Origin: Escherichia coli
GTDB lineage: Bacteria > Pseudomonadota > Gammaproteobacteria > Enterobacterales > Enterobacteriaceae
Length of the DNA stretch: 974 nt
Direction: 5' to 3' (one strand)
Assembly (NCBI RefSeq): GCF_003334815.1
Contig: NZ_QOWO01000111.1
Shown: one piece after another, positions 1 to 52 of the stretch
Position numbering within the stretch: the stretch's first letter is position 1
How the letters are laid out: every line of letters starts with the position of its first letter
Program-made: the position numbers and the translations under genes
The notes under the pieces: generated by a model
The model's input: only the letters and a program-made list of their open reading frames with translations
What the model was told of the DNA's origin: nothing
The model's database searches: none

Positions 1-52
1 TGTCAGCGCCAGTGATATAAGACGGTAATTCACCATTTGGATTGTCCGCTCC
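1..52. repeat. Left terminal repeat region (IRL) with an internally reiterated terminal motif
   Basis: Seen in sequence: 1-10 tgtcagcgcc and 43-52 tgtccgctcc match at 8 of 10 positions in direct orientation. IS21-family ends are known to carry multiple reiterated transposase-binding repeats. The exact extent of the inverted repeat cannot be set without the right end. Confidence 0.55.
13..21 (+). promoter_or_regulatory. Candidate extended -10 promoter element (TGaTATAAg)
   Basis: Seen in sequence: tgatataag at 13-21 matches the extended -10 consensus TGnTATAAT at 8 of 9 positions (all but the final base). It is oriented toward istA. With a 17-bp spacer a -35 would lie at about -7 to -2, upstream of the window. 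Not verified experimentally. Confidence 0.4.

Follow-up and report, generated by a model that had tools for sequence, protein, structure and literature searches.

The extended -10 element at the left end of IS21: very probably one half of a promoter completed in head-to-tail tandems

An extended -10 element lying almost at the very end of an insertion sequence raises an obvious question: where could its -35 partner come from? In the window analysed here, i.e., the whole stretch of 974 nt of Escherichia coli DNA whose first lines are given above, TGATATAAG is read directly from the sequence at 13-21 on the + strand, in the register of an extended -10 (TGnTATAAT) with A15 as the sole spacer base between the TG and the hexamer; the latter ends in G, whereas the consensus has a strongly conserved T at -7. 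The pattern TGNTATAA has one match in the window when both strands are considered, against 0.04 expected from 200 dinucleotide shuffles, and at least one match turned up in 7 of these 200 shuffled windows. The extended -10 proposed at this place by the first-pass annotation is borne out by its sequence, its register and its rarity in shuffles. Position 1 is the true terminus of the element: independent copies are identical from TGTCAG on, diverge directly upstream and are flanked by 4-bp target duplications. As this leaves only 15 bp of element 5' of the hexamer, a -35 cannot fit inside the element, and at 17-bp spacing it would fall on bases -8 to -3 of the flank. The motif had been described as lying 13 bp from the terminus without any -35 inside; the distance has to be corrected, since 12 bases precede the motif, and the lack of room for a -35 stands. 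The features discussed below are collected in Table 1.

Table 1. Coordinates of the features read or predicted in the 974-nt window
Feature	Position	Strand	Basis
TGTCAGCGCCA, outer terminal inverted repeat at the left end of IS21; makes up most of the junction-promoter spacer	1..11	+	Divergence upstream, 4-bp duplications
TG of the extended -10	13..14	+	Read from sequence
-10 hexamer TATAAG of the split/junction promoter	16..21	+	5/6 to TATAAT; activity from literature
Predicted transcription start of the junction promoter	27..30	+	Inferred from the usual 6-9 nt 3' of the -10 hexamer
TGTCCGCTCCA, inner second copy of the terminal TGTCAGCGCCA	43..53	+	9/11 identical to 1-11, 42 bp further in
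Predicted 5'-UTR hairpin; 59-65 pairs with 98-104, 68-72 with 90-94	59..104	+	In all 4 folds
Shine-Dalgarno AAGGA of istA	90..94	+	Read from sequence; 7 nt 5' of the annotated ATG at 102
istA, first 291 of 390 codons; the ORF runs past the window end	102..974	+	PGAP annotation of identical copies
In-frame ATG at codon 9, site of the reported IS21 cointegrase start	126..128	+	Read from sequence

Thousands of records, from enterobacterial plasmids and from E. coli, match the window, with an identity of up to 99.8% across all 974 bases; these copies are annotated as IS21 by PGAP, under the names “IS21-like element IS21 family transposase” (also the name of the 90% protein cluster) and “helper ATPase IstB”, with CDSs of 1173 and 798 nt. 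Complete copies measure 2131 bp (~2.1 kb), from TGTCAGCGCCA to TGGCGTTGACA, encode an istA product of 390 aa and an istB product of 265 aa, and carry 5'-TG...CA-3' termini with imperfect inverted repeats; their target duplications are 4 bp long, such as CGCG on an E. coli chromosome (L001), TCTT on an IncN plasmid (L002), or CTAT in L005. IS21 has 5'-TG...CA-3' termini with imperfect terminal inverted repeats, and its target-site duplication is 4 bp, sometimes 5. Reimmann et al. 1989 (Mol Gen Genet 215:416) reportedly described the junction promoter of the tandem (IS21)2 of plasmid R68.45, with an IS21 length of 2131 bp and a junction of 3 bp. On every feature compared, the window belongs to IS21 itself, of which it covers the left end and most of istA; set against the (IS21)2 junction promoter of R68.45 (IS21 is also called IS8), it shows the same gene sizes, the same codon-9 ATG, the same placement of the -10 and -35 and the same 2-3 bp junctions, and nothing substantive differs. 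The element being IS21 itself and not an IS21 analogue, the mechanism put forward in the first-pass annotation implies nothing new: the motif at 13-21 and its reading as part of a junction promoter are already known for this very element, since 1989. Two of its 974 bases set the window apart from the commonest database copies: T493, which gives V131 and not A131, and C563, which is silent; neither the plasmid nor the E. coli collection yielded a 100% match to it.

The passages of PMC10122671 that cite Reimmann et al. 1989 place the -10 of IS21 in its left terminal inverted repeat (TIR) and the -35 in its right TIR, and describe the promoter as weak in single copy and relatively strong in tandem; single IS21 copies are reported to transpose as well. 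IS21 is also listed among the elements with a junction promoter (Pjunc-type) in PMC9330008, where the reactive (IS)2 junction is described. The geometry of the copies that we retrieved agrees with this. The right end of full copies reads ...AACGGTCAAACATCGTGGCGTTGACA, ending ...GGCGTTGACA, and its last 6 bases are TTGACA, a perfect outward-facing -35 hexamer. The -10 hexamer faces inward, on the same strand as istA and 5' of it (ATG at 102), and when x bp separate a right end from the left end that follows it, the spacer amounts to 15+x. The reverse-complemented right end, TGTCAACGCCA, agrees with window positions 1-11 at 10/11 bases. IS21-family TIRs are reported with direct repeats L1-L2 and R1-R2 (PMC10122671), and TGTCCGCTCCA at 43-53 is, judging by its likeness to the terminal copy, probably the L2 transposase-binding repeat. 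In the IS21 right end, we also noted on the minus strand (L004 2602-2575) an inward promoter-like site, TTGCCA-16-GATACT (9/12), antisense to the istB 3' end; the frequency of sites of this type is at chance level (1 found, 0.8 expected).

Do the two halves meet in nature? We searched 72,556 plasmids and 20,395 E. coli replicons with a probe of 30+30 nt joining the right end to the left end. This short probe replaced a 259-nt right-end plus left-end probe, which was dominated by more than 1000 matches to a 590-bp internally deleted IS21, because the search joins pieces irrespective of their order. A continuous junction match was found in three E. coli IncF plasmid records, CP070400, NZ_CP054233, and NZ_JBUZJO010000002, and all three hold a complete head-to-tail pair of 2131-bp copies. 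In CP070400, the plasmid pCFSAN083828_2 of a chicken isolate (L003 2621-2653), the junction reads ...TTGACA-CA-TGTCAG..., with 2 bp between the copies and thus a 17-bp spacer; the two copies differ at 36 sites, so that this tandem is not an assembly artefact. Both NZ_CP054233, the plasmid pEcPF7-p1 (L004 2621-2654), and NZ_JBUZJO010000002 (L005 2621-2654), from human urine isolates, read TTGACA-CTA-TGTCAG, with a 3-bp junction and an 18-bp spacer; the two copies are identical in each of them, and the target duplication, CTAT, begins with the 3 bases CTA. These tandem junctions place TTGACA-17/18 bp-TG-n-TATAAG directly 5' of istA, i.e., 11/12 consensus bases plus the TG; in a match-count scan, no other candidate within +/-120 bp of the junction comes near this score. 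The proposal that the -35 is supplied by the right end of an adjacent copy is thus supported by the TTGACA terminus, by the natural tandems with their 17/18-bp spacers and by the literature. The exact pattern of a right end, 0-8 bp and a left end gave no match in the species-representative genome contigs or in the metagenome contigs. A left-end-only pattern served as a positive control for the genome contigs only; its 9 loci show that IS21 is present in the genome collection. IS21 tandems are rare in assemblies. Their occurrence in clinical IncF plasmids means, however rare they are, that the reactive, promoter-bearing state exists outside the laboratory. Classes of probe matches of 53-81 bp were rejected as junctions, as they are miniature derivatives in which the left end comes before the right end.

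We then turned to single copies. For 18 natural single-copy contexts (8 fetched loci and 10 from the genome scan), we scored the hexamers of the flank against TTGACA at 15-19 bp spacing, and the best -35 that the flank offers matches at only 1-4 of the 6 positions. Such poor flanking hexamers fit the earlier suggestion that istA expression may depend on the insertion context. As a counter-case, the first-pass annotation had named a promoter further inside, for example within 40-90; in the match-count scan, no sigma-70-like promoter with both hexamers inside 1-101 reaches 7/12, which speaks against this counter-case. We used match counts because a strict promoter scan requires a T at position 6 of the -10; this strict scan called nothing in the window or at the real junctions, and it is silent at 13-21 and at the junctions because the -10 hexamer has a G at -7. 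In annotating single IS21 copies, one should not count on finding an istA promoter that is complete in itself.

Taken together, these data indicate that IS21 very probably has a split promoter, in which 13-21 would be the -10 half and the terminal TTGACA of the right end the -35 half, the two being joined in the tandem. In a single copy, without a -35, transcription of istA and istB would be weak and set by whatever lies upstream. When two copies lie head to tail 2-3 bp apart, the halves, then spaced by 17-18 bp, would form a sigma-70 promoter close to consensus, and this promoter would drive istA and istB of the downstream copy from a start predicted at about 27-30; transposase and cointegrase would then rise exactly when abutted, highly reactive ends exist. 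Since the promoter bases also belong to the terminal repeat that IstA binds, bound transposase would probably occlude the promoter, which would amount to autoregulation; that IstA binding occludes promoter regions has been argued from work on IS5376 (PMC10122671). Our own basis for the split promoter is the sequence, the geometry, the natural tandems, the lack of an alternative internal promoter and the poor -35s of the flanks; promoter activity, and weak versus strong expression, are taken from the literature.

One may object that the extended -10 could work alone, without any -35, as the physiologically relevant, constitutive low-level istA promoter of single copies, the tandem being a rare curiosity. 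The TG is indeed in the correct register, usable -35s in the flank are rare although single copies are reported to transpose with weak promoter activity, and tandems are very rare in assemblies. We nevertheless consider this unlikely as the whole explanation: the G at -7 weakens a promoter that relies wholly on its -10, the terminal TTGACA, correctly spaced in every natural tandem, would be left unexplained, and the literature has stronger activity in the tandem. The two readings are not exclusive; a -35-independent activity complements the split promoter and may account for the weak activity of single copies.

We compared the two ends of the element with those of its relatives. TG-A-TATAAG and TTGACA are both kept in a Pectobacteriaceae plasmid relative (92% identity) and in ISEc62 (86% identity). 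When left ends are aligned with reverse-complemented right ends in these three lineages, the terminal similarity extends over ~50 bp with two consistent asymmetries. The first is at position 6, G in left ends and A in right ends, the A6 making the perfect TTGACA; the second is at the motif itself, TGATATAAG in left ends and CGATGTTTG, CGATCTTTG, or AGATTATTG in right ends (CGATGTTTG in IS21, where the stretch homologous to 13-14 reads CG). This left/right asymmetry implies that, in the IS21 lineage, the -10 likeness is a property of the left end only.

We then extended the comparison to 10 IS21-family elements, whose ends were set by their inverted repeats, plus target duplications where these are intact: IS21, the 92% relative, ISEc62, IS100, an IS100kyp-like copy, ISKpn7, ISEc57, two Burkholderiaceae elements, and one from Ensifer. 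L010, L030, and L031 were left out of this family table, the right end being truncated or absent, or the locus an ISKpn7 duplicate. IstA identity to IS21 falls as low as 31-35% (IS100, ISKpn7, ISEc57, and the two Burkholderiaceae elements). An exact TTGACA forms the right terminus of 9 of the 10 elements, and TTGATA that of the remaining one (ends from L024-L029 and L032, among others), and the left terminus varies across elements (TGTCAG, TGTTAG, TGTAAC, TGTCGC). At 16-21, left ends match TATAAT at 3-5 of the 6 bases and their right-end counterparts at 1-3, the left being higher in 8 of 10 elements and never lower; both ends score equal in ISKpn7, whose two hexamers are identical (AAAACT), and in the Ensifer element. 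The TG at 13-14 recurs in the left ends of ISEc62, IS100, ISKpn7, and ISEc57. The left-end variant TGTTAG, and not TGTCAG, is found in most of the species-representative genomes.

One has to keep in mind that transposition and transcription act on the same bases. Five of the six -35 bases are set by the conserved terminus TGTCA and the site lies inside the transposase-binding repeat, so that the two constraints are not fully separable. The -10/-35 resemblance, on sequence grounds, is partly due to transposase-binding constraints, an AT-rich stretch being present in the right ends of relatives as well. Pushed to its limit, this argument makes 13-21 only the AT-rich minor-groove segment of the IstA-binding repeat L1, with an incidental likeness to a -10. 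In the cryo-EM study, the linker that joins the two HTH domains is indeed described as touching an AT-rich region (PMC10122671), IS21-family right ends are also AT-rich at an equal distance from the terminus, and the AAAACT of both ISKpn7 ends at 16-21 points the same way. The IS21 left end, however, scores 5/6 plus the TG against 1/6 in the homologous right-end stretch, the left score is at least equal to the right one in all 10 elements and higher in 8, and the activity of the junction promoter is published (PMC10122671, PMC9330008); we thus regard a purely structural role as very improbable. An AT-rich role in transposase binding and a -10 role can coexist.

A chance occurrence of 13-21, devoid of any function, can effectively be discarded. 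Matches to TGNTATAA do arise somewhere in a few of the shuffled windows, as stated above, but such an accident would have to account for the position of the motif, its orientation toward istA, its perfect partner hexamer at the other terminus, and the spacing seen in natural tandems; moreover, the motif is kept in relatives at 86-92% identity and its function is published. We therefore retain the split promoter. Family-wide junction-activated expression is given as an open point for the IS21 family in a 2022 review. The comparison of ends suggests that the split promoter may be an ancestral trait that selection maintains in much of the proteobacterial IS21 family, an idea that we put forward tentatively and toward which we lean slightly less than against it; the invariance of the right end could instead reflect an optimal cleavage site. 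If the idea is true, junction-activated transposase expression would be family-wide.

A cointegrase isoform without the first 8 residues is described (PMC10122671), and the codon-9 ATG is, from its place in the reading frame, a candidate alternative start giving a cointegrase that lacks these 8 residues. In the predicted 5'-UTR hairpin, CAUGUUG (59-65) would pair with CAACAUG (98-104, which holds the istA AUG) and UCCUU (68-72) with the Shine-Dalgarno AAGGA; such a structure would mask initiation of full-length IstA and not the codon-9 start. The statistical backing of the hairpin is modest: its z-score is -2.85 for bounds 28-125 and about -1.5 for other bounds (range -1.4 to -2.85), and no covariation was found for 59-104, ISEc62 being without compensatory changes.

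Other mobile elements make use of comparable junctions. In the Pjunc of IS911, IS2, and other IS3-family circles, a right-end -35 and a left-end -10 likewise come together in the transposition intermediate only, where they make up a strong, transient promoter for the transposase, as in IS21 (PMC9330008); the IS3-family junction, however, forms on an excised circle by copy-out, whereas that of IS21 forms in a head-to-tail tandem, and IS3-family elements have a different transposase family, with a single protein and no IstB helper, unlike IS21. The (IS30)2 tandem dimer, too, has abutted ends a few bp apart, a reactive junction and a junction promoter (PMC9330008); IS30 is, however, a member of an unrelated IS family and its termini are different. 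A right-end TTGACA, as in IS21, is also found as an outward -35 in hybrid promoters, for example in ISKpn7 upstream of blaKPC in Tn4401: ISKpn7 ends ...GGTGTTGACA, about 220 bp upstream of blaKPC-2 (L024). In such hybrid promoters, flanking DNA supplies the -10 and it is a neighbouring gene that is driven, whereas the IS21 junction drives the transposase. The right-end TTGACA can create hybrid promoters for neighbouring genes, as ISKpn7 does near resistance genes.

Both a miniature and a 590-bp deletion derivative of IS21 are widespread. On the chromosome of E. coli NCTC86 (L006 1502-1553), a 52-bp miniature IS21 is made of the left end 1-28 and of the last 24 bases of the right end; it is flanked by a 4-bp duplication, CAAA, and looks MITE-like. 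The 53-bp match given by this miniature recurs in many E. coli chromosomes and plasmids, and variants of 55 and 81 bp were found at L008 2601-2655 (a Salmonella plasmid) and at about L007 2601-2681, respectively. A longer deletion derivative of 590 bp, in which 1-424 is joined to 1965-2131, is carried by pSA186_2 (L023 301-890) and by more than 1000 plasmid records, and adjoins a umuC-like gene on very many F-type plasmids; since it keeps both ends, it could be mobilised in trans. Finally, Yersinia pestis NCTC5923 (L015) has, on the minus strand, two left ends that lie 177 bp from each other, with a flank that reads as istA coding sequence: an IS21-like copy is inserted there in the 5' part of the istA of another copy.
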